Virus record (IMG/VR): IMGVR_UViG_3300045988_131126
DNA length: 64,000 nucleotides
Origin: a virus
Strand: one strand, 5' to 3'
The notes below the pieces were generated by a model. It did no database searches. It saw only the letters and a list, made by a program, of their open reading frames with translations, and was not told where the DNA came from. Shown here in pieces: positions 3,566-59,169 of the stretch (its first letter is position 1; each line of letters opens with the position of its first letter). A program made the position numbers and the translations under genes.

Positions 3566-3577
3566 AACAAATAAGTA
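3566..3577 (+). promoter_or_regulatory. Late-type promoter word (aacaaataagta)
   Basis: 37 nt upstream of ATG 3614. Confidence 0.35.
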
Positions 3578-4768: not shown

Positions 4769-4845
4769 TATATAATTGCAAGCATTAAGGAATCCTTTTA
4801 TAGGGTTCCTTAATGCCCTATTTAATAAATTGGAGGTTTAAAGAT

Positions 4846-16122: not shown

Positions 16123-16134
16123 TACGTGATTGTT
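16123..16134 (-). promoter_or_regulatory. Late-type promoter word (aacaatcacgta on the minus strand)
   Basis: 23 nt upstream of ATG 16100. Confidence 0.35.
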
Positions 16135-21283: not shown

Positions 21284-22150
21284 TTATAAATATTTTTTAG
21301 TACAGAAATCTATTATTTCATCTCTTACATGATCTTCTATATTAACCATTGCTATATCTCCGGTAGTTTTATTTACCAATCTTACTTGATTAGCATTTTC
21401 TGTAAGAGATATATCATTATACTCAAATTCTAATGATTCTGTAAACATTTTAAGATTAGCGGATTCCTGTTTGACGAAATCTATCACTCCTGGAGTAATA
21501 ATAGGAATAAGCAAACCAGAATCATTTTCTGTAAGATATAATCTGTTTCCATTATCGCATATTCCAGATTCTTGAATACAAGCACCTTCAGATACAATCT
21601 TTTCTGTATATGCTTTATCATGGGATGGATAAATTACTCTATCATAAGTAATTAATTTAAGACCTTTTACCTCTCCACCTCTAGCAGTCTGTTCTATTCT
21701 ACCTAAAGCGCGTAAAGACCAAGATGGAAGAAATCCATCAAGCAAATCTTGATTAAATTCTGCTCCTTTAGCATTATTAGTTCCTCTATATCTACCTTTA
21801 ACAAAATTACCTTCTGTCCATAAAGCTGTAAATATAGCAACTGTATTGTTCGGATCAATAGTTTGCTGTCTTTGTAAACTACTATCCATAGGATGACCAT
21901 TTTCTGCTCTCATATTACCAGTTTTAACTAATTCTTGTGTTCTTGAACAAGTAATCTGAGGGAATAATTCGTTATCACTATACCACCTTAAGTTTCTATT
22001 TCTCATATTAGCTTCCTGCAAAATACCTTCTGCAGTAACCTTATTAGTACCATTTCTATCTACGTCTATTTTTACGGGAAATTCCTTGTTCGTAAGACCC
22101 GTTTCAATGATTATATAACCCATATTTTTTAAAGGATTAGTACGAATCAT
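21284..22150 (-). CDS. Prohead core protease, T4 gp21-like
   Basis: By eye, QEANMRNRNLRWY, RAENGHP and LPSWSLRALG align with T4 gp21 QAEVVNRNKRLY, GELNHP and IPGVSSRGLG (the catalytic His and Ser regions). AAGGAGG SD. AACA-N6-TA upstream. Confidence 0.75.
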   Translation of the reverse strand: MIRTNPLKNMGYIIIETGLTNKEFPVKIDVDRNGTNKVTAEGILQEANMRNRNLRWYSDNELFPQITCSRTQELVKTGNMRAENGHPMDSSLQRQQTIDPNNTVAIFTALWTEGNFVKGRYRGTNNAKGAEFNQDLLDGFLPSWSLRALGRIEQTARGGEVKGLKLITYDRVIYPSHDKAYTEKIVSEGACIQESGICDNGNRLYLTENDSGLLIPIITPGVIDFVKQESANLKMFTESLEFEYNDISLTENANQVRLVNKTTGDIAMVNIEDHVRDEIIDFCTKKYL

Positions 22151-22179: not shown

Positions 22180-22191
22180 TAATAAATTGTT
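22180..22191 (-). promoter_or_regulatory. Late-type promoter word (aacaatttatta on the minus strand)
   Basis: 30 nt upstream of the protease ATG at 22150. It is divergent with the word at 22223-22234. Confidence 0.45.
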
Positions 22192-22222: not shown

Positions 22223-22234
22223 AACAATATTATA
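22223..22234 (+). promoter_or_regulatory. Late-type promoter word (aacaatattata) with the upstream ATGTACCAGGGTA element
   Basis: 30 nt upstream of ATG 22264. Confidence 0.45.
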
Positions 22235-24756: not shown

Positions 24757-24772
24757 GGAGGTGTATATAAAC

Positions 24773-25715: not shown

Positions 25716-25727
25716 AACAATTTAGTA
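25716..25727 (+). promoter_or_regulatory. Late-type promoter word (aacaatttagta) upstream of the capsid gene
   Basis: 59 nt upstream of ATG 25786. Confidence 0.45.
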
Positions 25728-25785: not shown

Positions 25786-27558
25786 ATGATCGCAGGAAAT
25801 ACTACTAATACAGTCATGGGTGGTTCTTATAGTGCTGATCACGCACTTTATAACTTCTCAGAACAAGTTAAAAACTTATTTGAAGATATGGAGCAGACAT
25901 CTCAGCACAACATTCTCAGTGAGACATGTAAAGTGCTTAAAGATGATCTTGCTTCTGATCAGCTCAAGAAATTCTTCGTTGAAAATTCTTGTGATGTAAA
26001 CGAATACGTTGAAAGACCTCAGGCTCTTGAGGAACACTACAACGATATGGAACAGCTGTATGAAAACGATAAGAAAGCTCTTATGGAGAATACAGCTATG
26101 GGAACAATCAACCCTATCGTTGGTCTTACATTCCCAATGCATAAACTTATTCTTATGAATATGGTTTTTGATAAAGGTGCTATTCAGAAAATGATCGCTC
26201 CACAGCAAGCATTCACTGTTGCTATGGAAAGACGTATCATGATTGATACTGAAGGAAATGAGCTTGACCTTTACAAAGATCAGAATAAACTTACTGCAGC
26301 TATTAAGAAAACTGCAGCTGTTAAAGAGATCGAACTTCAGCTTCCTGTAACTGATGATACAGAAATTGTAAATCAGTATCTTGATGGTATGGCTGGTGTT
26401 GATCATCTTAACGTTGAAACATATGTATGTGCTGTTAAAGTACCTAACGTATATTTCGAAAAAGGTGATATTCTTCCGGATGAAAATGGATATCTTGGAG
26501 AGGGAGAAGAAGCTACAGAAGCTACAACAAAAGATGTTTGGGTTCGTACAAAAGCTAACTTCGTTCCGATCTATGATGATGACGGAAGAGGACTTACACA
26601 TAAATTCAAATTCACCCACAAAGTACTTGAGGGTTCAGAAGTAAAAATTAAAGATGACTGTGATGTACTGACAGGTTATATGAAGAAAGACCGTCTGATG
26701 ATCCAGTCTAACAAGGGTGTTGTTACAGCTGTTAAGGTATATGCAAGACTTGATACATCTTCTGCAAACCTTACTACATGCTCTGCATCCTGGAAACAGA
26801 TCACAAGCCTTGTAGAGATTCCTGAAGGTATGCCAATCAATACCACAATCTCTCCGCAGGAAGTTAAAGATATTGCAGCAATGTATAATATCAACCAGAT
26901 TACAAAAGTTCTGGATATTACAAAAACATTACTTGCAAACTATAAAGATGATGATATTAAAGAATCCCTTGATACGTCTTATCTTGGATTATCTGAGGAC
27001 GAGAAATTCTTTAATACATACGATTTTGCTCCAAGAGCATCTTACTACAGTGACCATGTAAATTGGAGACGTGATACATTCTTCGATTTCTTCGATGAAT
27101 TCGTTGAAAGAATGCTTCGTGTACTCAATGATCCGAACGTTACTGTTACTATCTTCGGTGATGCTTCCATCATCAGAAAGATTGCTCCGGTAGAATATAG
27201 CTATCAGTCTCCATCCAACATTGGACCAGTAGAACTGGATTATGTTAAGACTGTAACTACATCTCACCATAGAGTATATCAGTTCATCGCATCTGATAAG
27301 ATGAGATTCTCTAATGATCTTATTGTAATTCTCTGCCCAAGAGGAACAGATAGAATCATATACAGAATCTATGATTATCAGACATATGTATCCAATGAGA
27401 TCCGTAATGCAAATAATCCATCCCTGCCAGCTATTCATGCATTTGAAAGATACAAATTCTATGAATATCAGCCAGTTCAGGGACGTATTAAGATTAAGAA
27501 TCCTACAGGTCTTATTCCAGAAACATATGATGTTGTTCCGGTTAAACATATTGCTTAA
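25786..27558 (+). CDS. Major capsid protein, T4 gp23-like (putative)
   Basis: INPIVGLTFPMHKLILMNMVFDKGAIQKMIAPQQAFTV resembles gp23 GPAVMGMVRRAIPNLIAFDICGVQPMNSPTGQVF. C-terminal NPSLPAIHAFERYKF resembles DPKNFQPVMGFKTRYG. Biased codon usage, a late motif upstream and a strong terminator downstream. Confidence 0.7.
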   Translation: MIAGNTTNTVMGGSYSADHALYNFSEQVKNLFEDMEQTSQHNILSETCKVLKDDLASDQLKKFFVENSCDVNEYVERPQALEEHYNDMEQLYENDKKALMENTAMGTINPIVGLTFPMHKLILMNMVFDKGAIQKMIAPQQAFTVAMERRIMIDTEGNELDLYKDQNKLTAAIKKTAAVKEIELQLPVTDDTEIVNQYLDGMAGVDHLNVETYVCAVKVPNVYFEKGDILPDENGYLGEGEEATEATTKDVWVRTKANFVPIYDDDGRGLTHKFKFTHKVLEGSEVKIKDDCDVLTGYMKKDRLMIQSNKGVVTAVKVYARLDTSSANLTTCSASWKQITSLVEIPEGMPINTTISPQEVKDIAAMYNINQITKVLDITKTLLANYKDDDIKESLDTSYLGLSEDEKFFNTYDFAPRASYYSDHVNWRRDTFFDFFDEFVERMLRVLNDPNVTVTIFGDASIIRKIAPVEYSYQSPSNIGPVELDYVKTVTTSHHRVYQFIASDKMRFSNDLIVILCPRGTDRIIYRIYDYQTYVSNEIRNANNPSLPAIHAFERYKFYEYQPVQGRIKIKNPTGLIPETYDVVPVKHIA

Positions 27559-29054: not shown

Positions 29055-30854
29055 TTAAAACTTAGGATCTGTAAGCTTTACTTTATCCTCATTCAATACT
29101 TTAGTTAAATTATATATGGCTTGTACTGCTTCATTTGTAGAAACTTTAATATTATTTCCACCAAGATCTATATATACTGCTTTAGAATTAATCTGCTCCC
29201 TTAACTCTCTATTGGCTTCTTCTGACCAAACAGCTTTTACAGAACACTGGTCACCATCATAGTCACCACCAATGGATTTAAGATAAACATTACTGAATAC
29301 TAATGTATCAATGAACTTATTGGAAGTATCACTTCCAATATCAGATTCTCTAATCTTTGGATAGAATGGATAATATGTATTATTTACATATATCTTTTCG
29401 GTTTCTTTTGTTGTACTTACTCTTACTAGTATCGGAAACTCGTTGAAGTAAGAATCCATAGGGAATCGAGTAATAAGAATGGTTTTATCCTTACATGCTT
29501 CACATGCTGCCATATATAATACATCACACCATGTAAGCGGCCTATTAATAAGAGAAGATTCTCCCATTATATCACCGCCAGTTTTAGCATACTTAGCTTT
29601 AGATACTTTCTTACCTTTAAATACTAATCCTAAAGTTCTTCCTGTCTTTTGATCGGTTAATGTAACTGGTTCTAATCTCTTAGAGAAAGAGAAGATAAAT
29701 TTATCTATTTGAGAATCTATCTCTTCATCAGAAAAAGTTATAAGTGGATCTTTAGGTTCAAACGGTACTAATTTTTTAGCTTTCGGATCGTAGACTTGCA
29801 TCAATTCTACATTTTGAAATAGATTTTCAAATAATCTTTTAGTCTGGAATATAATAAATGGCTTAAAGTTTACCAATGCAGATGCTAATGGTAATGCTGC
29901 ATGGTCTGTATCTACCATTAAATCTTCCATAGCTTCTACTTTTAAATCTGGAGCTGATAATACCAAACGTGTACCCATATCTGTAGATTTACTTAATACA
30001 GCTTCACGTATAATACCTGTCTTACCAGCTAATCCAATGCCATCATCTTTATTTTTAGAAGTACCAAATAAAGCATTAGATATATTTAATAAAGTTTCTT
30101 GTATTCTAGCATTAGTAGTATTCTCTATAGATAATCCGTAATCCTGAGTTTCTTGTATAGCTTTAGATGATATTATTAATGATTGATAATACTTATTAAT
30201 ACCACCAGCTCCAACAGCACCTTTAACCTTAGTATCCATATCTCTATAGAACGGAGGTATTACAAGAAATTTATCAAGAAACATCATTTTCTTGCATTTA
30301 TATAAGAATTGTATCTTTGTTGATCTAGTTCTTGTACCAGTTTCTTTTATTTTTATTTTATTTATATTTTTTCTAAGGAATTCTATACCAGTATCACCGC
30401 CAGATTGTACCTCTTGAATTAAACCATCCTGGTCTACTTTATAGAATCCTATCCCTGATACTATATTTCTAATTCTTTTATCTATACTGCACCATACTTT
30501 GTAGCAAAATGGATGCATGAACCACCCATGTAAATCAATATAACCAAATATATTAGCTCTATCATCTTTAGTTATACCGAATATTTCTTGAGATAATAAT
30601 CCTTTCGGAGCAGGATAGCCATCTCTAATAAATAATAAAGTATCTGTGATCTCTTCTACATTATTTTTCTTTATAAAATCTTGATAATCTAATAAGTCTA
30701 CCTTAAGGTGATTCATTTCTGCTTCATTCAAAACTCTACGACCATTGGTAGACACCCCATGAACAACAAGATTTACTATATTAAACTCTTCTTTAGTTAA
30801 AGTGAATTGTCCAGATTTACGCTGATAGTTTAGTGCACCTAAAATACCTGTCAT
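29055..30854 (-). CDS. RNA polymerase beta-prime subunit, N-terminal half (phage multisubunit RNAP)
   Basis: FLVIPPFYRD (compare VLPPDLRP), GKTGIIREAVLSKSTDMGTRLVLSAPDL (compare [24 protein letters not shown]), ITRFPMDS (compare NRAPTLH), IGGDYDGDQCSV (compare NADFDGDQMAVH). Confidence 0.85.
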   Translation of the reverse strand: MTGILGALNYQRKSGQFTLTKEEFNIVNLVVHGVSTNGRRVLNEAEMNHLKVDLLDYQDFIKKNNVEEITDTLLFIRDGYPAPKGLLSQEIFGITKDDRANIFGYIDLHGWFMHPFCYKVWCSIDKRIRNIVSGIGFYKVDQDGLIQEVQSGGDTGIEFLRKNINKIKIKETGTRTRSTKIQFLYKCKKMMFLDKFLVIPPFYRDMDTKVKGAVGAGGINKYYQSLIISSKAIQETQDYGLSIENTTNARIQETLLNISNALFGTSKNKDDGIGLAGKTGIIREAVLSKSTDMGTRLVLSAPDLKVEAMEDLMVDTDHAALPLASALVNFKPFIIFQTKRLFENLFQNVELMQVYDPKAKKLVPFEPKDPLITFSDEEIDSQIDKFIFSFSKRLEPVTLTDQKTGRTLGLVFKGKKVSKAKYAKTGGDIMGESSLINRPLTWCDVLYMAACEACKDKTILITRFPMDSYFNEFPILVRVSTTKETEKIYVNNTYYPFYPKIRESDIGSDTSNKFIDTLVFSNVYLKSIGGDYDGDQCSVKAVWSEEANRELREQINSKAVYIDLGGNNIKVSTNEAVQAIYNLTKVLNEDKVKLTDPKF

Positions 30855-33454: not shown

Positions 33455-33841
33455 TTATCCGTTATATAATTCGGTTAAAGTAACTTCATTATTTTTGGAT
33501 ATATTAGCTTTTAATGTATAAATAGAATCATCAATATCTAATTCTATTAAAAGAATTTTGTTTTCTTGTAAACTTATATTTACGTCTACTTGAGTAAAAT
33601 ACGGAAGAAATCTATTTATTTGATCCTCAATATTTTCTTCTAAGTCAACAATAGTTTCAGAATTCATATATCTATATTTACTAACCAGTCCTACTCCAGC
33701 TTCTGGGGCAATGGAAATAGTACCTGGTTCTAATAATATTAATCTACATACTAAAGTTAGTATTGCATCTTTATCTTTTATAACTAGAGGTTTATTGAAC
33801 GTACTTGTCGTAAACAAGTGATCTGTAAAAGTTTGCATCAT
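33455..33841 (-). CDS. Baseplate wedge protein, gp25 / GPW-like
   Basis: AILTLVCRLILLEPGTISIAPEAGVGLVSKY...LEENIEDQINRFLPYFTQVDVNIS follows the gp25 pattern (sIknsLlgiitTrkGsRpfdPeFGcdL....ve.nIesav..yEPRi....V.v). Confidence 0.6.
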   Translation of the reverse strand: MMQTFTDHLFTTSTFNKPLVIKDKDAILTLVCRLILLEPGTISIAPEAGVGLVSKYRYMNSETIVDLEENIEDQINRFLPYFTQVDVNISLQENKILLIELDIDDSIYTLKANISKNNEVTLTELYNG

Positions 33842-33936: not shown

Positions 33937-34656
33937 ATGAAAAATATATTAGCCGTATTTAATTGTGTACTTAAAGTTATGCATACAGAAGAAGATTGGA
34001 CGGAAGATGACAGATATTTTATGATATCACGTCAGGATTTATTTGCTGCTTTAGAAGAAGCAGAACAGTATATTTCAGACGTGTTTAATGAAGTGTATGG
34101 GAAAATCAATAATACCGAATGGCCATATAAACTGGTGAATGATGAGTATGATATTTATATAAAAATACTTAATGATAAATTTGAGTCGACCGGATATGAA
34201 CCAGATTCTGTAGATATGCTGACATTTGACCATGATATTAGATCAAATGATGAGTATCTGAAATATGTAGATTATGTGGAATATAGGTATGACTTCAAAA
34301 CAAGAAAAAGCAAAAGATATGAGAATGTTTATGGATGTGAACCTATAAGGCGGGATATTGGAGATAGCAAAAAATATCCAAGCTTTAAAATAGGCGATAT
34401 AGTAAAGCTTCAATATTCTGATAAATTATATGTTGTAAGCGGTGCTCCAACTATTAACAGTTTAAATAGAACTGTATGGAATCTGACATATTGTATACTT
34501 CCGTATATATGTGGTAAAGAAACCGATTTGTTTGTTGATGGTGAAAAAGAAGGAGTACATGAAAGCGAATTAGAACTTGTGTCTAAAGGTAATAATAAAC
34601 ATTTGCATTTAGATTATAAAAAGGGTACGTATATTATAACTGATAAGGAGAATTAA
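33937..34656 (+). CDS. Hypothetical protein (239 aa)
   Basis: ORF track. AAGGAGG SD. Early promoter word at 33886-33904. Confidence 0.75.
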   Translation: MKNILAVFNCVLKVMHTEEDWTEDDRYFMISRQDLFAALEEAEQYISDVFNEVYGKINNTEWPYKLVNDEYDIYIKILNDKFESTGYEPDSVDMLTFDHDIRSNDEYLKYVDYVEYRYDFKTRKSKRYENVYGCEPIRRDIGDSKKYPSFKIGDIVKLQYSDKLYVVSGAPTINSLNRTVWNLTYCILPYICGKETDLFVDGEKEGVHESELELVSKGNNKHLHLDYKKGTYIITDKEN

Positions 34657-34657
34657 A

Positions 34658-35098
34658 ATGCGTATGAATTACTTAGAATTAGCTGATAAATTAAAAGAAA
34701 ACACTATAACTCGTTTAAAAGAGGAAGTGATCCCATTAAATGAATTTACAGTAAGTAAAGATATAACCGGACTGGATCATAATATAATGATGGGAAATGC
34801 AAGCGAAAATCATCCAAACAGAATCAAAATATTTATTGGCAAGAAACCGGCCATTACTATAGCTTCTACTGGAGGAGAGGATGAACCTGCTGAAGTAAAA
34901 ATATTACCAAATAAACAAAGAGCCGAAGGATTAATTGGAGGTCCGAAAGAATTAAATAAATATATAAAATTTTTCAAAGAAAACTATGATCTTGTATTGC
35001 GTATAACTGATGACATGATGAATTCGGTAGATAAAGGAATTAGTAAACAATTGGAAAATGAAATTAAAGAAGAATTAAAAAGAAGGAGCAAAAAATAA
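34658..35098 (+). CDS. Hypothetical protein (146 aa)
   Basis: ORF track. AAGGAG SD. A terminator follows. Confidence 0.75.
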   Translation: MRMNYLELADKLKENTITRLKEEVIPLNEFTVSKDITGLDHNIMMGNASENHPNRIKIFIGKKPAITIASTGGEDEPAEVKILPNKQRAEGLIGGPKELNKYIKFFKENYDLVLRITDDMMNSVDKGISKQLENEIKEELKRRSKK

Positions 35099-35104
35099 TT
35101 TAAG

Positions 35105-35149
35105 CAGTATGAGATGGAGTAAAACCCGTCTCATACTGTTTTATTTTTT
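35105..35149 (+). terminator. Intrinsic terminator after 34658-35098
   Basis: cagtatgagatgg / ccgtctcatactg (one G-U pair) followed by ttttatttttt. Confidence 0.8.
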
Positions 35150-35318
35150 GTGATATTTTAATAAAATATAAATTTTAGCAAATGAGAAATATATTATGTA
35201 TTTAGGAACAAACCAAAATAGAATACAAAGAAGTACAGTATTCCTTAAATGATGTAAAAATTTACAAAAGATGATCTAAATTATATTTGCAAATGTATAG
35301 AAAATGACTAAATATATG

Positions 35319-35354
35319 GTAGTAAGACCGAATATTCGGTCTTACTACTTTTTT
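35319..35354 (+). terminator. Second, orphan intrinsic terminator
   Basis: gtagtaagaccgaa / ttcggtcttactac followed by tttttt. No ORF lies between it and the previous terminator. Confidence 0.7.
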
Positions 35355-35406
35355 GTATATCTGAAACATTTCAGTAATTAATCAAATAAAGGAGAGTACA
35401 GTTATT

Positions 35407-37731
35407 ATGAACGAAATAGCATTAATGGAAGCAGCCTCTTCTGTATATAAAAGAAAATATCAATGCCCTTACTGTAACGAAAAATATGATAGAATTAAAC
35501 TTGTGGATCATATAGAAAAGAAACATTCGGAATTCATTCCAAAAGACTTTACTGCATCTAGAATAGTATTTAATACCGTAAATAAAAAAGAAAAAGGCAA
35601 ATGCACTATATGTGGAAAAGAATCTCCATGGGACGAAGATAAATGTAGATACGATAGATTTTGCAGTGATAAATGTAAAAAAGCTTACGAGCAACTAGCT
35701 GCAGAAAGATTAAAAAGGGTAAGAGGAATGACTAAGCAAGAAATGCTTAAAGATCCAGAATATCAAAATAATGTAATGCTTGCCAATAGAAGTATATCAG
35801 GAAAATATAAATTTCAAGATGGAACCATAAGAACTTATGTAGGTTCTTATGAGCATAAGTTTTTGGAATTTATGGATAAATTTTTAAATGTAAAAAGCGA
35901 GGACCTAGAAACTCCTGGGCCTATAATAGAATATAAGTTTAAAGGAGAAACTCATAAGTGGATTACTGATGCTTATTATGCTCCATATAACTTAGCATTT
36001 GATATTAAAGATGGCGGAGATAATCCAAATAAAAGAGAAATGCCTGAATATAGAGCTAAACAAATAGCAAAAGAAGATGCTATTAGAAAACAAGGTAAAT
36101 ATAATTATATAAGATTAACCGATAACAAGTTTGAGCAATTGATAGAATTAATGCTTGAATTAAAAGAATTATATATAGAGAATAATGGAGAATATAATCC
36201 TATTATAAGAATCAATGAATCTACTGTATTAGAAAGCAAGAAAGCCAAAGACTTAGGACCTAAAGTATGTAGTAAATGTGGATCTAAAAACATAGGAGTA
36301 TTTTTCCAAGGAGAACCTATCTACAAATGTAAAGATTGCGGAGAATATTTAGGAGTAGTACCATTTAACGAATCTGCTTCAAACGATATAATCCAAAATG
36401 CGTTTAATTCAGTAATTCATACTATTAAATGGTGCAGAATGGATGACTCTGCTTTTTGCAGTATAAATGAATATAACAAGCCAAAGATAATTAGCGATAA
36501 TTCATTCTCTGCTGGTAAATTTGCGTATGAATCTGGAATTGATGCTGTAGTAAAAACTATTAACTATAACAATATTTTCGAAAATGGAAAATATTCTGCA
36601 AGATGTGATAATAATGAATTAATTATCACGATTGATAAATTGAATAACATGAATGAATCATATATTATAGATGAAATATATAAAGGAGATAATAATATGA
36701 TTCGTGAAAATAAATCTACACTTGATCCAAATCATAAAACTAAAAAGACTGATACAACTTTTAAGTTTATAGATCTTAAAGATCCTAGCGTAGATAAATA
36801 TTTAAAACAAGACAAATATTGTACAGAGTATTGGGATTATATTCATAAAAGTTGCATAGGTGAAATAGTTATAGATGCTGATAGCGATTGTATAGCAGGA
36901 TATGTATTCTTAGATAATAAGAAATATCCGGGATTTATAACTCCGGTTGTAGTGATTAAGAAATATAGAGGATATGGATTATCTTCTAAGCTTGTAAAAG
37001 ATGCCATAAATAAATATAAGGCCATAGATTTAACTGTAACGAAAGATAACGAAGTTGCTATTAAATTATATAAAGATAACGGGTTCGTTATAATTGGAGA
37101 CGGTAATTCCAAAAATGAGTATTGGATGAAGCTCAAAAGCAAGCTTACTGATGAAGAGAAATCTAAATCACTAAAAGAATTTTCTATAATAACTCCATCA
37201 TCTGATAAACCTTCTCAAGAAGGATTTATTGGTCATGGATCTTGGAATGCTATTAAGAAAGTTAATGGAGAACCATATAGAGAGCGTGTAGAAGTAATTA
37301 TATTTAATAAGGAATTAGATAAAGTACTTATTGGTACTAGAAAATCTGATGGTAGTGTTAAACTACCTGGAGGTGGTACTGATAAGAATTCTTCATTAGA
37401 GTCTCAAGCTGCTAAAGAATGTCAAGAAGAAGTAAAGGTAAATATAGATAATCTTAAGTATATCGGAAGTTATTCTATGTCTAATGAACAGGCTAGGTAT
37501 AAGGATGATGTATATAAAGGACAATACACGTATCTATATTTAGCAATTTATGATTCTGATTATACTGGATATATTAGACCAGAAGATCTTGATTCTTTAT
37601 ATGATACAGCTGAATGGATGAGTATTTATGATGCTAAAAAATTATTAAAGAAGAGATCTGTAGATTTATACAACTTATTTAACTATAATTATAAATTATA
37701 TATTAATGATTTATCGTATTTAAAATTATAA
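35407..37731 (+). CDS. Multidomain protein: C2H2 and FCS-type zinc fingers, PD-(D/E)xK-like nuclease, zinc ribbon, GNAT acetyltransferase, Nudix-like domain
   Basis: - Zinc fingers: CPYCNEKY..HIEKKH and RFCSDKCKKAY.
- Nuclease: SYEHKFLEFMD..IEYKFKGETHKWITDAYY..LAFDIKD (D..DxK).
- Zinc ribbon: CSKCGS..CKDCG.
- GNAT motif A: VVIKKYRGYGLSSKLV..
- Nudix-like: RVEVIIF..LPGGGTDKNSSLESQAAKECQEEVKV. Confidence 0.6.
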   Translation: MNEIALMEAASSVYKRKYQCPYCNEKYDRIKLVDHIEKKHSEFIPKDFTASRIVFNTVNKKEKGKCTICGKESPWDEDKCRYDRFCSDKCKKAYEQLAAERLKRVRGMTKQEMLKDPEYQNNVMLANRSISGKYKFQDGTIRTYVGSYEHKFLEFMDKFLNVKSEDLETPGPIIEYKFKGETHKWITDAYYAPYNLAFDIKDGGDNPNKREMPEYRAKQIAKEDAIRKQGKYNYIRLTDNKFEQLIELMLELKELYIENNGEYNPIIRINESTVLESKKAKDLGPKVCSKCGSKNIGVFFQGEPIYKCKDCGEYLGVVPFNESASNDIIQNAFNSVIHTIKWCRMDDSAFCSINEYNKPKIISDNSFSAGKFAYESGIDAVVKTINYNNIFENGKYSARCDNNELIITIDKLNNMNESYIIDEIYKGDNNMIRENKSTLDPNHKTKKTDTTFKFIDLKDPSVDKYLKQDKYCTEYWDYIHKSCIGEIVIDADSDCIAGYVFLDNKKYPGFITPVVVIKKYRGYGLSSKLVKDAINKYKAIDLTVTKDNEVAIKLYKDNGFVIIGDGNSKNEYWMKLKSKLTDEEKSKSLKEFSIITPSSDKPSQEGFIGHGSWNAIKKVNGEPYRERVEVIIFNKELDKVLIGTRKSDGSVKLPGGGTDKNSSLESQAAKECQEEVKVNIDNLKYIGSYSMSNEQARYKDDVYKGQYTYLYLAIYDSDYTGYIRPEDLDSLYDTAEWMSIYDAKKLLKKRSVDLYNLFNYNYKLYINDLSYLKL

Positions 37732-37736
37732 ATTGT

Positions 37737-37767
37737 AACCCCATAATCTGTATTGGATTATGGGGTT
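37737..37767 (+). terminator. Hairpin after 35407-37731
   Basis: aaccccataatc / gattatggggtt. Confidence 0.55.
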
Positions 37768-37777
37768 TCTTAATGGC

Positions 37778-37811
37778 TCTGAATATATTCAGAATATGAT
37801 AGATTCAGAAT
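37778..37811. promoter_or_regulatory. TCTGAAT-AT-ATTCAGA palindrome plus a TCAGAAT half-site
   Basis: Palindrome at 37778-37793, half-site at 37805-37811. It sits directly upstream of the promoter of the HTH protein gene. Confidence 0.55.
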
Positions 37812-37820
37812 ATATAATTG

Positions 37821-37840
37821 TATATTATTACTGTGAATAA
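37821..37840 (+). promoter_or_regulatory. Early-type promoter word (tatattattactgtgaataa)
   Basis: 34 nt upstream of ATG 37874 and next to the TCTGAAT palindrome. Confidence 0.55.
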
Positions 37841-37873
37841 ATAAAATTTTTCAACACTAAGGAGGAAAAACTT

Positions 37874-39034
37874 ATGAAGAGATCTAAAACAAACACATAC
37901 TATAATTTTAACGCTCCAACAGTAGAAGAACTGGATCCCGTCAGTAAAAAGATTTATGATGGGTTATGTAATGGTGAAAACAAAAAGGTACTTTCGAATA
38001 AGTATAAAGTACCAATGACTGCAATCATCGCATTGCAGAAAAGGTTTAAAACCGGTACAATTGCAAATTCGCAGTTACCTGAAATGGTGCAGAAAACGGA
38101 AACTACTGACAAATCCAAAGTAATTCAAATCGGAAACGATTCAGATTCTAGCAAAGATAGTGTAGAAACTAAATCTAGAAAGAAGAGAAAAACTGTTAAC
38201 GAGGATGATATAGATTTAGTTATCGAATTTGTCAAAGATGGATATACATCTAAACAAATCGCTGAATTGACAAATTTATCAATATCTACAATATCTAGGA
38301 TACGAACCAATAATCGGTCAGAGTGTCAGTCTTCCAAAACAAACACCGAGAATACTATCAGCACTACTGAAGATCATAAAACTCATTCAGATATAGTACC
38401 TATAGGTACTTCTATCAGAGTTGGGTTAGTAGCTGACAGGCATAATATGCCTGTAAATGATTTTATCTTCAAGACATCTTTATCTAAGTCGATCATGTTC
38501 GATTATGATAAAATTGAAGATATCTGTAGAGAATACATCGACGAGATGGTTGATTTCATCAATGGAGAAGCTCAACAGAAGTTAGTAGTGTACGTGACTG
38601 GTATTCAGTGTGTATTATCTTCTTTGATCAAAGTAGCTAATGAAAAGAAGGTAAATTTAACACTGAGACACTATGACTCAGACACTAATACTTATCACAC
38701 TCATGTGATATGGGATCAATTTGGTGGTTCCACACCTGTAGAGATAGATGAGTTATTAGTAAACTCAAAAAGTTCTTATACATATAAGTGTGATATAAAA
38801 GAACTTATTGAGAATAAATCATGCATAAAGATAGTAGAGGTTCATTATAATAATGATACCGTGGTCTATCAAGATGCATACTTGGTAAAAAATACTGATG
38901 ATATGTTTATGCTTGTGTCTGACATGATGAAGAAATCAGACAAAGATGTATCAATCTATGCCAAAGGCTATGATTTGATTAAAGGTCGATTCGTGTTAAA
39001 CGGAATTGATCTTAAGTTAAAAAATAAAAATTGA
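37874..39034 (+). CDS. Putative transcription regulator with two HTH-like segments
   Basis: KKVLSNKYKVPMTAIIALQKRF and DGYTSKQIAELTNLSISTISRIR look like HTH motifs. TCTGAAT palindromes and an early promoter word lie directly upstream. Confidence 0.5.
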   Translation: MKRSKTNTYYNFNAPTVEELDPVSKKIYDGLCNGENKKVLSNKYKVPMTAIIALQKRFKTGTIANSQLPEMVQKTETTDKSKVIQIGNDSDSSKDSVETKSRKKRKTVNEDDIDLVIEFVKDGYTSKQIAELTNLSISTISRIRTNNRSECQSSKTNTENTISTTEDHKTHSDIVPIGTSIRVGLVADRHNMPVNDFIFKTSLSKSIMFDYDKIEDICREYIDEMVDFINGEAQQKLVVYVTGIQCVLSSLIKVANEKKVNLTLRHYDSDTNTYHTHVIWDQFGGSTPVEIDELLVNSKSSYTYKCDIKELIENKSCIKIVEVHYNNDTVVYQDAYLVKNTDDMFMLVSDMMKKSDKDVSIYAKGYDLIKGRFVLNGIDLKLKNKN

Positions 39035-39150: not shown

Positions 39151-42100
39151 GTGCCAATATTTGTTGACGATACAGAAGCTGTTAATGAAAAAGTTAACAG
39201 TTTCTCAGCATTCATATCTACTAAAATAATAATTGATGAAAAAGAAAATAAGATATTTATCAAAGGAATTAATTATGATAAATTTCTTATAAGAATAAAA
39301 GATATGTATGAAACTAAATCGGTAAATAAATTATTTACAAAAAACTATACTCCATTTACACAAAAATTATGGGAGAAAAAGAAAATACCTGGATATAAGA
39401 GAAAAGTTACAAATTTAGAAGTAGATTTATTTTTTGCTAGCGAATTATATAATATATTAATGCAATTAGCTGATTATTATAATCTCAGATATTATCGTAG
39501 AATGGCAGAATATATAAAGAAAAATACTTATTTGGATAATCTCGATAAAAATATTGATGTAAAAGTTGATATAAATAGACTAAATAGTATATTGAACGAA
39601 GATTACAAGCCTAAAGATTTTCAAGAAGAATTTATCAAAAAATATTTCGAATATAAAGAAATATATGATCTAGATGGGTATATATTATCGTTTGATCAAG
39701 GTTTGGGAAAGACATTTACCGCAGCTTGTATATCGGAACTTATACATCCAGATCAAACAATAATAGTATGTATGAATACGCTTAAAGAGAACTGGGCTAA
39801 TGAATTAAGATTATATTTCAAAAAATATAATGATATCGAAAGATTCAAAAGAGAAGTATATGTATATGGAGTTTCTAAACCAAAAGAATACTCCAACGAT
39901 ACAAGATATATTATCGTAAATAATGAATCAATAAATAAAATATTTCCATTAGTTAAGAATACAAATTCTACTATGATAATAGTCGATGAATGCCAAAATT
40001 TTAGAAATTTAGATTCATTGCAAACCAAAAACATGCTCAAATTAAAGCAAATAACTAAGTCCAAAGACAATCTTATGATGTCCGGTACACCTATAAAAGC
40101 TAATCCGAGCGAAATAGTACCAGCTATGATGATGATTGATAGAACCTTCACTTTAGATTTAGCCAAACTATATATAAAAGCATTTACAAGTAATACCGAT
40201 ACATTGTCTGATGTGGTTCAGACAAGGTTTAATAGAACTATATATAGAAAAACAAAAGATCAAGTTTTGGATTTACCATCTAAAACTGTAACTAATTTTA
40301 AATTAGAGTATAAAGATGAAGATCCTTATTTGATGATAAATGTAAAAAAGAAAGTAGCGGATAGATTTCAAGAAATACTTGAAAGCTATAAAGACGAGGT
40401 AGATTCTGTTAAAGATGAATTTAGAGAAACGACTTTAAAATATTCATCACAAGATAGAACTACTACGTTAGACTATATAAAATTTGTTGATAAAGGACAA
40501 GATTATGAATCTGTACATGATTCGTTATATGACTTATATGATGGATTTATCAAGAATAATGTATATCCTAATATAAAAGATAAAGATGAATTAAAAAGAT
40601 ATAAATACGTAGTAAGTGTATATGTATATATAACTCAAAAATGTTTTTTCTTAGCTATGGGAGAAGTTCTACCAAAAATAAAAGCTAAAGCATTTAATGA
40701 GTTATATGATAATAATAAAGATCTTATATATAAAATGATCAATAATAATCCAAAGAAAACAGTTATTTTTTCTACTATAGTAGAAGTTGTAGATCATATT
40801 TGTGATGATCTTAATAAAAACGATATAAAAGCTGTAAAGATAACTGGATCTGTAAAAAATCGAATGAATATTATTAATCAATTTAGAGAAGATGATACTG
40901 TAGATGTATTAGTAGCAACCTCTCAAACTATGGGAACTGGTGTTACATTAGTAGAAGCAAACCAAATGATGGTATTTTGTCCTCCGTATAGAAAAGCAGA
41001 TTTTGATCAAGCCTGTGATCGTATATATAGAATAGGACAAACTCATCCGGTAAATATTTATAATATAATAGGATCTACTTCATCTAAAGACATAACTACA
41101 AGAATGACAGATATATTAGATTGGTCAGATCAAATGGTTTCTTCTGTATTAGATAATATAGTTAATGAAGAAGCTTTAATAGAAAAATATAAAGGAGAAG
41201 ATACTAATATGATCATGTTTGAAGAAGCTATATATGATTCTAAACATACAGAACCGGTATATATAGTATTGATGCATACCGGAACTATGCTGGCTAATAC
41301 CATAAAGGCTGTAACAAAAGATGAATTTTCCCATTCATGTATATCATTTACAAGTAAACTTGATCCGATGTTTTCTTTTGGTAACAAGAAAACGTCATAT
41401 ATTGCCGGGCAACCTGGATTTGTTCAGCAAAATACCAAGGACGAGTTTTTTAAGAAGAAAAAATCTGTTTATGAAATATATGTAATGTTTGTAAGCAAAA
41501 GTCAAAAACAGAAGATGATAGATAGATTAAAATGGTTCAAAGAAAAAGATAAATATTTAGGGTATGATATTATAGGATTAATTAAATATAAATTAGGCAT
41601 ATCTAGCGATGATAATCTTAAAAAATGGTTCTGTTCAAGATTTGTAGCAGAATTATTAGGCCAAGCTGAAGATTTGGGCAGGGATGCTAGTTTATTTAGT
41701 CCTCAAGATTTTAAAAATGATTTGAATTTTATTTCTTTAGTTAATAAAGGCGATGATTTATATAATTATGATTACAAAGTGACAGAGCGAAACTTAAAAA
41801 AAATAAAGGAAGGAGATTATTCGTATAACGAATCTGATGCAAATATGGGAATAATAGAAAAAGCTTTACTAGAAATGGACAATACAGATGATATTAAAGA
41901 ATCAACTTTATTAACTGAGACACTAGAAGATTTTCTTAATAACGGTATGACTGTAAGTGAATCTTTAGCATTAAATGAAGCCACATTATCTTCTAAAGAA
42001 AGAAAATCTTTACCTGATAAAACATTTGGTTTACCAGAAAAAAGAAAATTTCCTTTAAACGATTACGATCATGTAATTTTAGCTATTAAATTCTTCAATA

Positions 42101-43737
42101 GATGCGACAAGAAAGATCAAGAGGAATTAGCTAAAAATATAATTAAAGCTATGAAAGTATATAAAGTTCCTACTGATAAGATAGGTAAAAATAATAAATT
42201 AAGAAATTATATAAATGGGTCTTTAAAGGAATTTGCTATTCATGAAGGATTGCTTAGTAAATATAAAACAGAAAAAAGAGAGATAACTCCTAAAGTTTCT
42301 AAAAAAGAAGCTGCTAATAAAATGGTGAATTATTTAAATAGCTTACTGAATGGAAAATATAAGCAATTTAAAAAGTATATAGAAATTGCAATTGATGATA
42401 AATATATAACCAATTTTATTAAAGATTCAGATTCTAGATATGTTCATATAGATTTATACTATTTCAATGTACCTGAAAAAGATCAGGATATACAGATTAT
42501 ATCATACGGAAAATGCAAAACATTTGATGATTATGAAGATAAGCTTCCTAAAAACATGATAGACGATCTATTTGGAGACCTCGAAAAATTTGCGAAAAAT
42601 TTATCCGGAGACGGTGTATATGATGTATACAGTATTCCCGATCAAGGATGGTCTTTAGAAGGAACCGTAGGATTTGATTATACAAAAAAATATGAAACTG
42701 TTAAAGTTAATAAGAAAACAGGAGAAGTAATGAAAGAATCAGTTTTGGATGAGGGATTATTCAAAAAAGATCCTTACAAAGATACAATTAAGAAATACAG
42801 AAAATATAATCCTTCAAGACCAGATTGTGATAAAACGATGAAAGACATAGAAAATACTCTGGTTAACGATATAGCTAAAAATATTAGAACGAAATTAATT
42901 AAAGTTGAAAATAATGAAGACGACACTGTATCTGTAATATTTAAAACAGATAAAGTATCTGGGTTAAATAAAAGATGTTTTGACGCTGTTATTAGATCTA
43001 AAGGAGTAACACTTCTAAATGAATCGTATAAGCTAATTACAGTTAAATATAAAGATTGTATTTTACTTGTATCGACTAGTGATGAAGATGATGACGATAT
43101 CGAATCAATTTTTAGAATAGATCTATCTGTTTTATATTGTAAAGAGTATTCTGATGCTTGCAAGATTTCTATATCATCTATAGAGGTTTTATGTAAAAAT
43201 GTAAATATAACATATACGTCTTTAGTAAATCCTGCGTTTGTGTCATTCTCCGTAGCCGGAGGAGGAAATGCTTATACAGATAAATATCCGAATATAGAAA
43301 AAAATACCGGATGTAAAATAATACCTAAAGCATTCGCGATATATGTATTTTCTAATAATGCAATACATGAATCTGTAGGAGTTCCTGTTGTAGGTCTTAC
43401 TAGCAAAACACCAGTAATAGTAGATAATATGTATAATAATGCATTTACTTCATTAGAAATGGATGAAGAAATAATACGTAATTGCATGATGTCTTCTACT
43501 AAAGCATTACTAAATAAAGAGGATAAATTCTACGTTCCTTATATTCCATATATACAGGAATCTTTAAATATAGATCCTAACATAGGATTTTATAGAGATA
43601 GAAATGGTATATTTGTAATGAACGAGAATACCAAATTAAGATCTCCTTCATATAATGACGTAGATGATATAGATGATAGAACTATATTATATGTAACATA
43701 TGGAGAATTAAACGATTCTAAATTAAACGATTTATAA
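39151..43737 (+). CDS. SNF2-family helicase fused to a permuted papain-like (YiiX/YaeF, C92-type) domain and a long C-terminal region
   Basis: SNF2 motifs: FDQGLGKTFTA, IIVDECQNFRN, MSGTPIKANPSEI, TGVTLVEANQMMVFCPPYRKADFDQACDRIYRIGQ. Then FSHSCISF...KWFCSRFVAELL, with His before Cys as in permuted NlpC/P60. GTG start. Confidence 0.8.
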   Translation: MPIFVDDTEAVNEKVNSFSAFISTKIIIDEKENKIFIKGINYDKFLIRIKDMYETKSVNKLFTKNYTPFTQKLWEKKKIPGYKRKVTNLEVDLFFASELYNILMQLADYYNLRYYRRMAEYIKKNTYLDNLDKNIDVKVDINRLNSILNEDYKPKDFQEEFIKKYFEYKEIYDLDGYILSFDQGLGKTFTAACISELIHPDQTIIVCMNTLKENWANELRLYFKKYNDIERFKREVYVYGVSKPKEYSNDTRYIIVNNESINKIFPLVKNTNSTMIIVDECQNFRNLDSLQTKNMLKLKQITKSKDNLMMSGTPIKANPSEIVPAMMMIDRTFTLDLAKLYIKAFTSNTDTLSDVVQTRFNRTIYRKTKDQVLDLPSKTVTNFKLEYKDEDPYLMINVKKKVADRFQEILESYKDEVDSVKDEFRETTLKYSSQDRTTTLDYIKFVDKGQDYESVHDSLYDLYDGFIKNNVYPNIKDKDELKRYKYVVSVYVYITQKCFFLAMGEVLPKIKAKAFNELYDNNKDLIYKMINNNPKKTVIFSTIVEVVDHICDDLNKNDIKAVKITGSVKNRMNIINQFREDDTVDVLVATSQTMGTGVTLVEANQMMVFCPPYRKADFDQACDRIYRIGQTHPVNIYNIIGSTSSKDITTRMTDILDWSDQMVSSVLDNIVNEEALIEKYKGEDTNMIMFEEAIYDSKHTEPVYIVLMHTGTMLANTIKAVTKDEFSHSCISFTSKLDPMFSFGNKKTSYIAGQPGFVQQNTKDEFFKKKKSVYEIYVMFVSKSQKQKMIDRLKWFKEKDKYLGYDIIGLIKYKLGISSDDNLKKWFCSRFVAELLGQAEDLGRDASLFSPQDFKNDLNFISLVNKGDDLYNYDYKVTERNLKKIKEGDYSYNESDANMGIIEKALLEMDNTDDIKESTLLTETLEDFLNNGMTVSESLALNEATLSSKERKSLPDKTFGLPEKRKFPLNDYDHVILAIKFFNRCDKKDQEELAKNIIKAMKVYKVPTDKIGKNNKLRNYINGSLKEFAIHEGLLSKYKTEKREITPKVSKKEAANKMVNYLNSLLNGKYKQFKKYIEIAIDDKYITNFIKDSDSRYVHIDLYYFNVPEKDQDIQIISYGKCKTFDDYEDKLPKNMIDDLFGDLEKFAKNLSGDGVYDVYSIPDQGWSLEGTVGFDYTKKYETVKVNKKTGEVMKESVLDEGLFKKDPYKDTIKKYRKYNPSRPDCDKTMKDIENTLVNDIAKNIRTKLIKVENNEDDTVSVIFKTDKVSGLNKRCFDAVIRSKGVTLLNESYKLITVKYKDCILLVSTSDEDDDDIESIFRIDLSVLYCKEYSDACKISISSIEVLCKNVNITYTSLVNPAFVSFSVAGGGNAYTDKYPNIEKNTGCKIIPKAFAIYVFSNNAIHESVGVPVVGLTSKTPVIVDNMYNNAFTSLEMDEEIIRNCMMSSTKALLNKEDKFYVPYIPYIQESLNIDPNIGFYRDRNGIFVMNENTKLRSPSYNDVDDIDDRTILYVTYGELNDSKLNDL

Positions 43738-45698: not shown

Positions 45699-45724
45699 GG
45701 AAGTATACTTTTCAGTATACTTCC
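45699..45724 (-). terminator. Hairpin overlapping the helicase stop codon
   Basis: ggaagtatac / gtatacttcc. Confidence 0.5.
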
Positions 45725-59132: not shown

Positions 59133-59144
59133 AACAACACTGTA
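59133..59144 (+). promoter_or_regulatory. Late-type promoter word (aacaacactgta) upstream of the terminase gene
   Basis: 26 nt upstream of TTG 59170. Confidence 0.4.
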
Positions 59145-59169
59145 ATATTGATTGAGGAGATGATGTAAA

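Follow-up and report, generated by a model that had tools for sequence, protein, structure and literature searches.

A candidate virion-loaded polyvalent protein built on a zinc-finger nuclease anchor in an uncultured jumbo phage

The 64,000-nucleotide stretch of viral DNA analysed here (IMG/VR record IMGVR_UViG_3300045988_131126; hereafter the window) is AT-rich (~29-30% G+C), with gene blocks that switch strand, and contains at nucleotides 35407-37731 an open reading frame (ORF) for a 774 amino acid (aa) protein, which is the subject of this report. No stop codon or frameshift interrupts the 774 codons. The gene lies in a phage setting, since capsid, protease and multisubunit RNA polymerase genes are found in the same window. 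Two multisubunit RNA polymerase beta-like genes, a DNA polymerase and a helicase (29055-30854(-), 54150-56357(+), 51195-53315(-) and 45712-47256(-)) confirm that this is a jumbo phage of the phiKZ/AR9 type. Its capsid protein is just ~21% identical to those of Staphylococcus jumbo phages, and likewise to those of deoxyuridine (dU) phages, so the lineage is distant from the cultured members. A megablast of nucleotides 34000-39000 against 50,697 phage records found no near-identical DNA in cultured phages, and by this comparison the phage is uncultured.

The identical 774 aa protein is encoded on 43 contigs from ENA, Logan, JGI and NCBI, the longest being 381,972 bp, and its neighbours are constant across them. 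The records, among them 21 index blocks whose longest contig measures 0.2-1 Mb, derive from separate samples and different assemblers. This excludes chimeric assembly, and with it the concern, voiced in a first-pass annotation of this window, that the long ORF might be a mis-assembled fusion of separate genes. One copy has been deposited at NCBI (DAF93071.1, Myoviridae sp. ctcyQ27) as 'acetyltransferase domain containing protein'; names of this sort in the current databases hide the architecture.

The protein holds at least seven modules, namely two zinc fingers, a nuclease core, a zinc ribbon, an alpha/beta domain at aa 322-414, a GNAT acetyltransferase and a Nudix domain (Table 1). The first-pass annotation had described a five-module fusion of zinc fingers, nuclease, ribbon, GNAT and Nudix; every domain that it named was recovered here, and the aa 322-414 domain was missed. 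Its C2H2-like finger is identified by Pfam zf-Di19/C2H2 (aa 17-41), and the ligands are invariant in alignments of 29 and of 67 sequences. Its FCS-type finger gives weak matches to YacG and DUF2116 (aa 65-96), with a MYND domain among the Foldseek matches, and the four cysteines are invariant or nearly so in the same two alignments. What had been called a TnsA/Vsr-style nuclease core is covered by PHROG 15137 ('endonuclease', E 5.9e-32), which spans aa 18-252 as a single unit (profile positions 4-234 of 236). Across 67 clusters less than 50% identical, residues C20, C23, H35, H40, C66, C69, C90, E149, D188 and K201 are invariant.

AlphaFold2 modelling of aa 1-272 (mean predicted local distance difference test [pLDDT] score of 79) revealed a disordered leader, two small finger units and a nuclease core of alpha-beta-beta-beta-alpha-beta topology, in which E149 is located on a helix, D188 ends strand 2 and D199-x-K201 lies on strand 3. 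A Foldseek search against PDB gave no match below E 0.02, and hence no close solved relative of this region. The weak list, of qualitative value only, is dominated by nucleases of the restriction endonuclease (REase) fold (SduA, PvuRts1I/AbaSI, BstEII, Cas4, MUS81, RecE, Exo5, McrC) plus C2H2 and MYND fingers.

Using tblastn, aa 18-254 matched a stand-alone ~235 aa protein of cultured jumbo phages, the 'endonuclease fused to N-terminal Zn finger domain'. Homologs are present in Bacillus phages AR9 (g233, gp233), PBS1 and BpSp, in Staphylococcus phages S6, Madawaska and others, in Listeria phage LPJP1 and in Yersinia phage phiR1-37 (g237), with 32-39% identity overall and 34-39% for those of AR9, PBS1 and the Staphylococcus phages. 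AR9 gp233, PBS1 gp124 and phiR1-37 Gp237 share with the 774 aa protein the full PHROG 15137 profile over aa 18-252, the same zinc ligands and E-D-(D/E)xK residues, an adjoining baseplate gene and the same late-promoter motif. They differ in being stand-alone and in ending before the I-N-E junction motif described below, whereas the 774 aa protein continues with ~500 extra residues of cargo. From these comparisons, aa 1-272, hereafter the anchor, is the same unit as the stand-alone late 'Zn-finger endonuclease' of the AR9/PBS1/S6/phiR1-37-type jumbo phages.

Behind the anchor, the CxxC..CxxC ribbon seen in the first pass agrees with a weak TFIIB-ribbon match and with the three-stranded ribbon predicted by AlphaFold2; it recurs as a module in 6 of the 139 representatives considered below. 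A structure search of aa 273-443 against PDB and BFVD returned nothing significant except generic zinc ribbons, and the model of this region has predicted-disordered linkers at aa 273-283 and aa 415-443. The alpha/beta domain between them has no Pfam or PHROG match and no significant structural relative in PDB or BFVD, and is rare (1 of 139 representatives).

The GNAT assignment is upheld by three Pfam families scoring above their cutoffs, among them Acetyltransf_1 (PF00583; aa 475-560, E 7.7e-9, 36.3 bits against a cutoff of 20.7). The segment YRGYGLSSKL aligns with the acetyl-CoA motif A of GNATs in PDB, where the nearest sequences are a GNAT, Naa30, SSAT and streptothricin acetyltransferase, all weak (E >= 0.001). 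By its sequence, the module is a RimI/NAT-like acetyltransferase. The Nudix-like domain is likewise secure (Pfam NUDIX, PF00293; aa 624-750, profile positions 2-126 of 134, E 1.8e-9, 38.2 bits against a cutoff of 21.1); its nearest sequences in PDB are RppH, ADP-ribose pyrophosphatase and NUDX1, again weak (E >= 0.001). The claim that its Nudix box is degenerate must be withdrawn. The box does deviate from GX5EX7REUXEEXGU (Arg to Lys, trailing Gly to Lys, first Glu to Ser), but E671, E674 and E675, which align with MutT E53, E56 and E57, never vary in the family or in the paralogue. Across ~20 family variants the Arg position (Lys or Asn) and the trailing Gly vary, while Glu-x-x-Glu-Glu is always kept. 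Since this triad is intact, the box is divergent and not catalytically degenerate, and by its residues the Nudix hydrolase of the 774 aa protein is catalytically intact.

The paralogue in question, a free-standing Nudix protein of 188 aa elsewhere in the window, had been recognized in the first pass and was confirmed by BLASTP; it aligns with aa 597-748 (29% identity over 168 columns), including the extension preceding the Nudix fold. Its start was placed at the ATG at 16100, as this codon is preceded by a GGAGGA ribosome-binding site. NCBI names it 'RNA pyrophosphohydrolase'. It is plausible that the GNAT and Nudix modules would act on host or nucleotide-derived molecules. Phage effectors of the same superfamilies have plausible host-directed roles, such as Rac of phage phiKMV, a GNAT acetylating the RNA polymerase alpha subunit, and Nudix domains of jumbo phages have been proposed to degrade ADP-ribose-derived signals (PMC7824862). 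These effectors differ from the present case in that no specific sequence relationship to the 774 aa protein has been established.

The arrangement behind the anchor is highly variable. A search of a large protein database returned 1430 relatives, and architectures were mapped on the best 120 of these with a greedy module map. The 120 proteins range from 436 to 1349 aa, differ in Pfam content and display ~48 architectures, the anchor always coming first and the rest being present or absent. In 57 clusters the anchor is at least 95% identical to that of the query, and these show 24 architectures at the same locus. The Nudix C-terminus is common to 55 of the 57; some members have no GNAT (e.g. 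A-B-C-H-E in the module map), some have two, and others gain as many as five additional modules. In clades other than this one, the Nudix module comes straight after the anchor or is replaced by HAD and kinase modules. Clean indels fall at aa 270, 435 and 585, all inter-domain linkers: a 116 aa module is inserted exactly at the INES junction (aa 269-272) and a 153 aa second GNAT at aa 435, and the reading frame is kept across every junction. Forms of 1080 and 1349 aa occupy the same locus with the same neighbours, the former on dozens of contigs of more than 200 kb. Because 24 line-ups occur at one locus among anchors at least 95% identical, the modules are very probably independent, swappable cargo on a conserved anchor. 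The five-module fusion, which had been taken for a meaningful combination in the first pass, is one line-up among these, and some of the others lack the GNAT.

The DNA of close relatives shows how such differences arise. In one of them (L011) an 879-nucleotide insert is flanked by sequences 96.5% and 98.4% identical to the window, and its borders carry an imperfect repeat of ~40 nucleotides which encodes linker. The near-identical flanks and the repeat-bounded insert show that linker-coding repeats recombine with one another and that modules are exchanged in this way.

An exhaustive search with the anchor, covering 1.84 billion representative proteins, found it in 940 clusters at 50% identity, 593 of them at E <= 1e-30. 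The 139 new closest representatives have a median length of 638 aa; three are of 300 aa or less, 136 are longer than 300 aa and 16 reach at least 1000 aa, and some carry the anchor internally. Among 67 representatives, a Pfam census identified GNAT (11), HAD (6), Nudix (4), P-loop kinase-like (4), DUF6582 (3) and SNF2 (1) domains; most of the cargo matches no Pfam family.

Two further features fell outside the first-pass account, namely the conserved linker motif treated below and a second polyvalent ORF (39151-43737), which sits two genes downstream. Its 1528 aa product contains an SNF2 helicase (aa 174-629), the 'WFCSRFV' signature of a YiiX/permuted-papain-like module, and a C-terminal module ending ...FYRDRNGIFVMNENT..., and its modules recur in relatives of the 774 aa protein (P0066, P0083, P0092). 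In one relative (P0122) the zinc-finger nuclease anchor carries SNF2, kinase and HAD domains in the same chain, whereas in the window the SNF2 protein is separate. No Pfam or PHROG match to a peptidase family was found in the 774 aa protein. A module of some relatives ('module G', ~aa 594-757 of P0028, also in P0032 and P0035; not in the window) contains '...YKGGICWDYV...H...' and has the look of a transglutaminase/papain-like cysteine peptidase, and one representative matches Pfam DUF553 (transglutaminase-like). An embedded processing peptidase is thus possible in some relatives.

Table 1. Features of the 774 aa ORF, its surroundings and related loci in the window (nucleotide positions; a slash marks a candidate cleavage site)
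Feature	Position	Strand	Basis or remark
Free-standing Nudix paralogue, 188 aa	15534..16100	-	BLASTP E 4e-13 vs aa 591-774
Late-promoter-like motif AACAATCACGTA upstream of Nudix paralogue	16123..16134	-	Motif scan
T4 gp21-type prohead protease homologue, candidate processing enzyme	21284..22150	-	E 2e-21 to DC4 protein
Major capsid protein precursor; candidate maturation site ...KKALME/NTAMGTINPIVG (aa 98-112)	25786..27558	+	PHROG 20655
Baseplate-protein homologue, divergent, as in AR9, Staphylococcus phages and T4	33455..33841	-	tblastn with Madawaska baseplate protein, E 2e-7
Terminator-like hairpin and T-run ending upstream unit	35319..35355	+	gtagtaagacc-gaatattc-ggtcttactac then TTTTTT
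AR9-type late-promoter-like motif AACATTTCAGTA (AACA-N6-TA)	35365..35376	+	Predicted start A35376, 31 nt before ATG
Ribosome-binding site AGGAGAG	35390..35396	+	Sequence reading
Whole ORF, candidate polyvalent protein, 774 aa + stop	35407..37731	+	ATG start, uninterrupted
Leader MNEIALME, aa 1-8, ending hydrophobic-x-Glu then Ala	35407..35430	+	pLDDT <50 for aa 3-12
C2H2 zinc finger, aa 18-41 (C20, C23, H35, H40)	35458..35529	+	Pfam zf-Di19 E 4.8e-6
Treble-clef (FCS/YacG/MYND-like) zinc finger, aa 64-94 (C66, C69, C86, C90)	35596..35688	+	Weak Pfam YacG/DUF2116
PD-(D/E)xK nuclease core, TnsA/T4 gp4-like, aa 125-260 (E149, D188, D199-x-K201)	35779..36186	+	PHROG 15137, AlphaFold2, Foldseek
Junction motif I-N-E-S, aa 269-272, closing the anchor	36211..36222	+	Conservation; pLDDT 48-59
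Zinc ribbon, aa 284-318 (C288, C291, C307, C310)	36256..36360	+	Weak TFIIB-ribbon match (aa 288-312), AlphaFold2
Junction motif F-N-E-S, aa 320-323	36364..36375	+	Motif scan
Alpha/beta domain, aa 322-414, alpha-beta-beta-alpha-beta-beta	36370..36648	+	AlphaFold2, pLDDT 86-97
Disordered linker, aa 415-443, with M-N-E-S, I-D-E-I, I-R-E-N; insertion site for extra modules	36649..36735	+	pLDDT <50
GNAT acetyltransferase module, aa 444-587 (Pfam core 475-570)	36736..37167	+	PF00583, PF13508, PF13673 above cutoffs
~40-nt linker-coding repeat bounding GNAT-Nudix insertions	37147..37186	+	Aligns to both sides of 879-nt insert in L011
Nudix module, aa 591-774 (Pfam core 624-750)	37177..37728	+	Pfam; same unit as free-standing paralogue
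Nudix box, aa 655-678, GGGTDKNSSLESQAAKECQEEVKV, keeps E671, E674, E675	37369..37440	+	Aligned to E. coli MutT and to 20 variants of the family
Second polyvalent protein, 1528 aa: SNF2 helicase, YiiX-like module, DUF6582, further modules	39151..43737	+	Pfam

Proteins of this kind have been described. Polyvalent proteins, encoded by phages and conjugative elements, join in a single chain 2-15 domains that are unrelated to one another and mostly enzymatic; an embedded processing peptidase (a metallopeptidase [MPTase] or other) is frequent, not universal (PMC5512222), and GNAT (RimI-like) and SWI2/SNF2 domains are among their recurrent cargo (Iyer et al. 2017, J Bacteriol; PMC5512222). The family studied here resembles them in its many unrelated effector domains, its combinatorial architectures, modules which also exist as solo genes, what may be a late or virion gene context, and the role proposed for them, delivery of an enzyme cocktail with the DNA followed by processing. 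It differs in its anchor, a zinc-finger and TnsA/gp4-like nuclease ('TnsA' and 'head completion' occur 0 times in the survey), and in that the query has no embedded MPTase, so that any processing would use the prohead protease at the linkers. The cargo also leans to Nudix, HAD and P-loop kinases, and shuffling is documented among genomes 96-98% identical. Since both the polyvalent kind and the AR9 gp233-type anchor gene were already known, the protein is not categorically new, and the earlier statement that no protein of this combination had been described is not supported: the kind is described, the anchor gene is annotated and the protein itself is deposited. Compared with the literature consulted, four things appear new, namely that the anchor nucleates a very large cargo-fusion family in uncultured jumbo phages, that it is probably related to gp4, that an Asn-Glu motif is conserved at the junction and enriched across the proteome, and that cassettes are shuffled at linker repeats on the strain level.

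The relationship to gp4 was approached through profiles and gene order. T4 gp4 is itself a TnsA-like nuclease (PF08722, E 2e-21, 76.8 bits), and AR9 gp233 falls below the threshold of this family (E 0.0057, 17.6 bits against a cutoff of 26.5). A hidden Markov model (HMM) of the nuclease core of the family aligned with T4 gp4 at 13.9 bits and E 1.9e-6, a value computed on one pre-chosen target, with the Glu, Asp and (D/E)xK residues in register (YE/WE, ITD/FMD and DvK/EIK). In T4, gene 4 (head completion) is divergent from gene 53 (baseplate wedge) and has the deoxynucleoside monophosphate (dNMP) kinase gene downstream. AR9, Madawaska and BpSp mirror this order, with guanylate kinase and endonuclease on one side and a divergent baseplate gene on the other, and upstream of the 774 aa ORF the window retains homologs of the baseplate gene and of AR9 g231. 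The likeness to T4 gp4 extends to the REase-fold core, the catalytic motifs, the gene neighbourhood and, probably, membership of a late, virion-associated class; gp4-type nucleases are described as virion-associated and needed for packaging (PMC7824862). The differences are that gp4 has neither zinc fingers nor cargo, and that its similarity to the query is marginal. On sequence evidence that is marginal by itself, the anchor core is probably a gp4-type head-completion nuclease, and we infer that the anchor may be a low-copy virion component of the head-completion type.

Transcription of the locus is suggested to be late. In AR9, late promoters follow the consensus AACA-N6-T[A/G] (PMC5312081). 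AR9 g233, which has an AACA-N6-TA late promoter, is strictly late, its RNA measuring 0.47, 141 and 1092 at 5, 20 and 40 min. The consensus is depleted across the window (44 copies against ~103 expected), and 12 of the 44 copies lie 1-80 nucleotides upstream of ORFs on the same strand, against 3% expected. The genes so preceded include those for the capsid, the protease, the 774 aa protein and the Nudix paralogue; copies of the motif may be seen, for example, at 25716-25727, 22180-22191(-), 22223-22234, 933-944, 3566-3577 and 59133-59147. This distribution suggests that the phage uses promoters of the AR9-like non-virion RNA polymerase. Because its promoter-like motif is shared with the capsid and protease genes, the 774 aa ORF is likely to be co-expressed late with the head genes, and we regard late expression of the protein as probable.

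The junctions between modules carry a conserved motif. In the 139 representatives, [IV]-x-[IV]-N-E closes the anchor, and beyond it divergence is complete. E271 never varies in the 67 clusters of less than 50% identity, and N270 is conserved in at least 90% of them, which matches the zinc ligands and catalytic residues. In the 774 aa protein the pattern hydrophobic-[N/D]-E-[S/A] is present at aa 269, 320 and 415, i.e. three times where 0.23 would be expected (three or more in 4 of 2000 shuffles). All three copies lie between folded domains, the first and third with pLDDT below ~60 and the second (aa 320-323) in a stretch that has a pLDDT of ~62 and borders a confidently folded domain. As the motif had been defined after the family was seen, it was tested on 49 other ORFs of the window, in which hydrophobic-N-E-[S/A] occurs 10 times against 3.0 expected (none of 500 shuffles reaches 10). 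Controls in the same ORFs were unenriched: hydrophobic-D-E-[S/A] (0.95x), the reversed motif (0.64x), the motif with the hydrophobic residue omitted (0.54x) and hydrophobic-N-D-[S/A] (0 against 3.2 expected). The 1528 aa ORF has 10 copies of hydrophobic-x-E-[S/A] against 2.8 expected.

Near-N-terminal copies of hydrophobic-Asn/Asp-Glu-Ser/Ala are found in the ORFs at 8116-8907 (aa 13), 11043-11903(-) (aa 15), 17484-18188 (aa 14), 22264-24756 (aa 26), 29055-30854(-) (aa 42) and 4813-7218 (aa 52 and 67), some of which belong to structural-gene clusters and one of which is an RNA polymerase beta-like subunit. These may mark leaders or propeptides removable by the prohead protease. About 40 of 125 family members also open with a leader of 5-10 residues that ends in hydrophobic-x-Glu and is followed by Ser or Ala, and that of the query (aa 1-8) may serve as a capsid-targeting or propeptide leader. 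In phages T4 and SPN3US, injected head proteins have N-terminal targeting peptides or long propeptides which the prohead protease removes after x-x-Glu, examples of packaged and injected proteins being the internal proteins and Alt of T4 and the ejection proteins of SPN3US and phiKZ (PMC7411985). The query leader, MNEIALME/A, and the linkers fit this pattern; a difference is that each ejection protein has a single function and a single cleavage, whereas the multi-module chain here would need several cuts. In the window, a gp21-type prohead protease gene is present, and the candidate maturation site of the capsid precursor aligns with ...EEILME/SSMGPIQP of the Staphylococcus phage Madawaska precursor. 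Given the enrichment, the leaders, the protease gene, the capsid site and the T4/SPN3US precedent, the hydrophobic-Asn-Glu-Ser/Ala linker motif is a good candidate for a prohead-protease site.

We propose, with a probability of roughly 0.55, that the 774 aa protein is a late, probably virion-loaded polyvalent effector protein strung behind a conserved anchor, and possibly cut into separate enzymes. According to this proposal, the gene would be transcribed late, alongside the capsid genes, to give a polypeptide in which independent effector modules follow the nuclease anchor. Recombination at short linker-coding repeats would gain, lose and reorder the cargo, leading to a strain-specific cocktail. 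The late-made protein would be loaded into the particle for the next infection cycle, its linkers being cut by the gp21-type prohead protease between hydrophobic-Asn-Glu and Ser/Ala, and the separate enzymes would enter the host with the DNA and act before phage gene expression, the GNAT modifying host proteins and the Nudix hydrolysing a nucleoside-diphosphate-X compound. For the individual parts, loading into the virion and delivery with the DNA is an evenly balanced proposition, and proteolytic release at the linkers is somewhat more doubtful than that. The fullest version, a large and hitherto unrecognised jumbo-phage family in which a gp4-like two-finger nuclease, in many cases preceded by a short T4-like targeting leader, would serve as loading handle for a shuffled enzyme chain, cut by the prohead protease and injected as customised effectors, is more tentative again.

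Several observations weigh against this proposal. Virion presence of the fused members is a prediction, and the stand-alone homologue of the anchor was not detected in the virion proteomes of two cultured relatives, BpSp (23 proteins) and DC4 (15 proteins), both of which are shallow and missed the portal and/or the protease as well. The kinship with gp4 is weak: beyond the 13.9 bits given above, PF08722 gives no match in the query core even at E <= 10, and hhalign of a long gappy alignment (A1) against T4 gp4 gave a probability of 2.7%, such that a dedicated core profile was needed. If the anchor behaves as gp4 does, it may moreover be added to heads that are already packaged and have lost the prohead protease, which would argue against cleavage. 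Late expression rests on a 12-nucleotide motif from a distant relative, the capsids being ~21% identical. The linker motif was defined post hoc, and its independent enrichment in the other ORFs could have another cause; hydrophobic-S-E-[S/A] is enriched there as well (8 against 2.7), so the specificity is not sharp, and some relatives (e.g. P0084) are devoid of any hydrophobic-N-E-[S/A]. Finally, assignment of substrates to the GNAT and Nudix modules from the nearest PDB sequences was rejected, these matches being weak and mutually inconsistent, and we therefore claim none.

Some of the same observations would suit a late cytoplasmic multi-enzyme that is never packaged. Here, the nuclease would act on DNA late in infection, either in packaging-associated trimming, as proposed for T4 gp4, or in degrading host or competitor DNA, the cargo enzymes would work in the same cell, and the linkers would be flexible joints conserved for recombination or folding, not proteolysis. 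Invariance of the putative catalytic residues suggests that the anchor is probably an active enzyme and more than a packaging handle; the linker-coding repeats demonstrably serve as recombination joints; HAD, P-loop kinase and Nudix domains also suit editing of the nucleotide pool within the infected cell; and the failure to see the stand-alone homologue in the BpSp and DC4 virions is what it would predict. However, the GenBank note to the phiR1-37 record labels g237 'phage structural protein', and enzymes that remodel host or pools are most useful early, whereas this gene family is late, which fits manufacture for the next infection. An invariant Asn-Glu in a segment of low order, immediately before full divergence, is hard to explain by folding, and recombination depends on matching nucleotides, not on a Glu kept without exception in clusters that share less than 50% identity; a protease site fits both the enrichment of the motif across the proteome and its placement near N-termini. 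We consider a purely cytoplasmic role unlikely, though it is the main rival. The reading implied by the first-pass annotation, a single integrated enzyme in which GNAT and Nudix act in concert while fingers and nuclease target nucleic acid, is considerably less probable still. All domains do share one frame, the exact protein is common (43 contigs) and Nudix ends 55 of the 57 close-clade clusters, but near-identical strains display 24 architectures, in some of which the GNAT is absent or doubled or unrelated inserts lie between GNAT and Nudix, elsewhere the Nudix directly follows the anchor or gives way to HAD and kinase modules, long predicted-disordered linkers part the modules, and the Nudix module exists as a separate gene too.

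A selfish element of the homing-endonuclease type, with the attached domains as passengers, was considered because mobile elements often encode PD-(D/E)xK and zinc-finger nucleases and the locus is highly polymorphic, a nearby intergenic site having gained a gene in a relative. Synteny and the constant anchor led to its rejection. The gene lies beside the baseplate gene in the window phage just as it does in phages of Bacillus, Staphylococcus and Yersinia, that of AR9 is single-copy and strictly late-regulated, and a constant anchor with variable cargo is the reverse of a mobile nuclease cassette; this origin is therefore highly improbable. The chance that assembly or gene calling joined separate genes is negligible: nothing speaks for it beyond the unusual length and domain count, and it is contradicted by the identical product on 43 contigs of up to 382 kb, the lack of an internal stop or frameshift and the variants that stay in frame at every junction.

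In the fullest version of the proposal, the linkers would double as protease sites and recombination joints, and the locus would be a self-contained cassette system for evolving injected anti-host or anti-defence enzymes. The family adds a new type of anchor, zinc fingers with a gp4-like nuclease, to the polyvalent concept, and suggests processing by the prohead protease, for which no embedded peptidase is needed. If the proposal of a virion-loaded polyvalent protein is true, the injected set would span acetyltransferases, Nudix proteins, HAD phosphatases, kinases, SNF2 helicases and many folds not yet recognized, making the locus a natural catalogue of the enzymes which jumbo phages of the gut deliver ready-made, with hundreds of modules, most of them outside any Pfam family. 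The cargo modules, including the aa 322-414 domain, would be a hunting ground for anti-defence and host-takeover activities. Genomes 96-98% identical which differ by whole modules offer a testable case of strain-level arms-race shuffling in human-associated phages, and the linker motif provides a checkable prediction of the specificity of the prohead protease in the AR9 group and of which other proteins bear removable leaders.

Some minor features of the region may be added. A second polymorphic site of the locus is the intergenic region just upstream of the ORF, where a relative (L010, 2077-2819, compared with window nucleotides 35207-35224) carries an inserted gene of 279 aa. The peptide that follows the candidate maturation site of the capsid precursor (ME/NTAMGTINPIVG) resembles the one that follows I-N-E in ~25 anchor proteins (e.g. 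INEY/TAVGGMNPVIG), where it opens a recurrent C-terminal module, and the 1528 aa ORF holds a similar peptide ('IHE/SVGVPVVGLTS'). The idea that these ~25 members are anchor-capsid fusions was discarded, since BLASTP of the capsid protein against the 259 collected proteins gave no match and the likeness covers ~12 residues. Between the ORF at 22264-24756 and the capsid gene, nucleotides 24761-25705 (+) encode a highly acidic protein with four repeats of the 'EDNFDMPDD' type, which is probably a scaffold or core protein.

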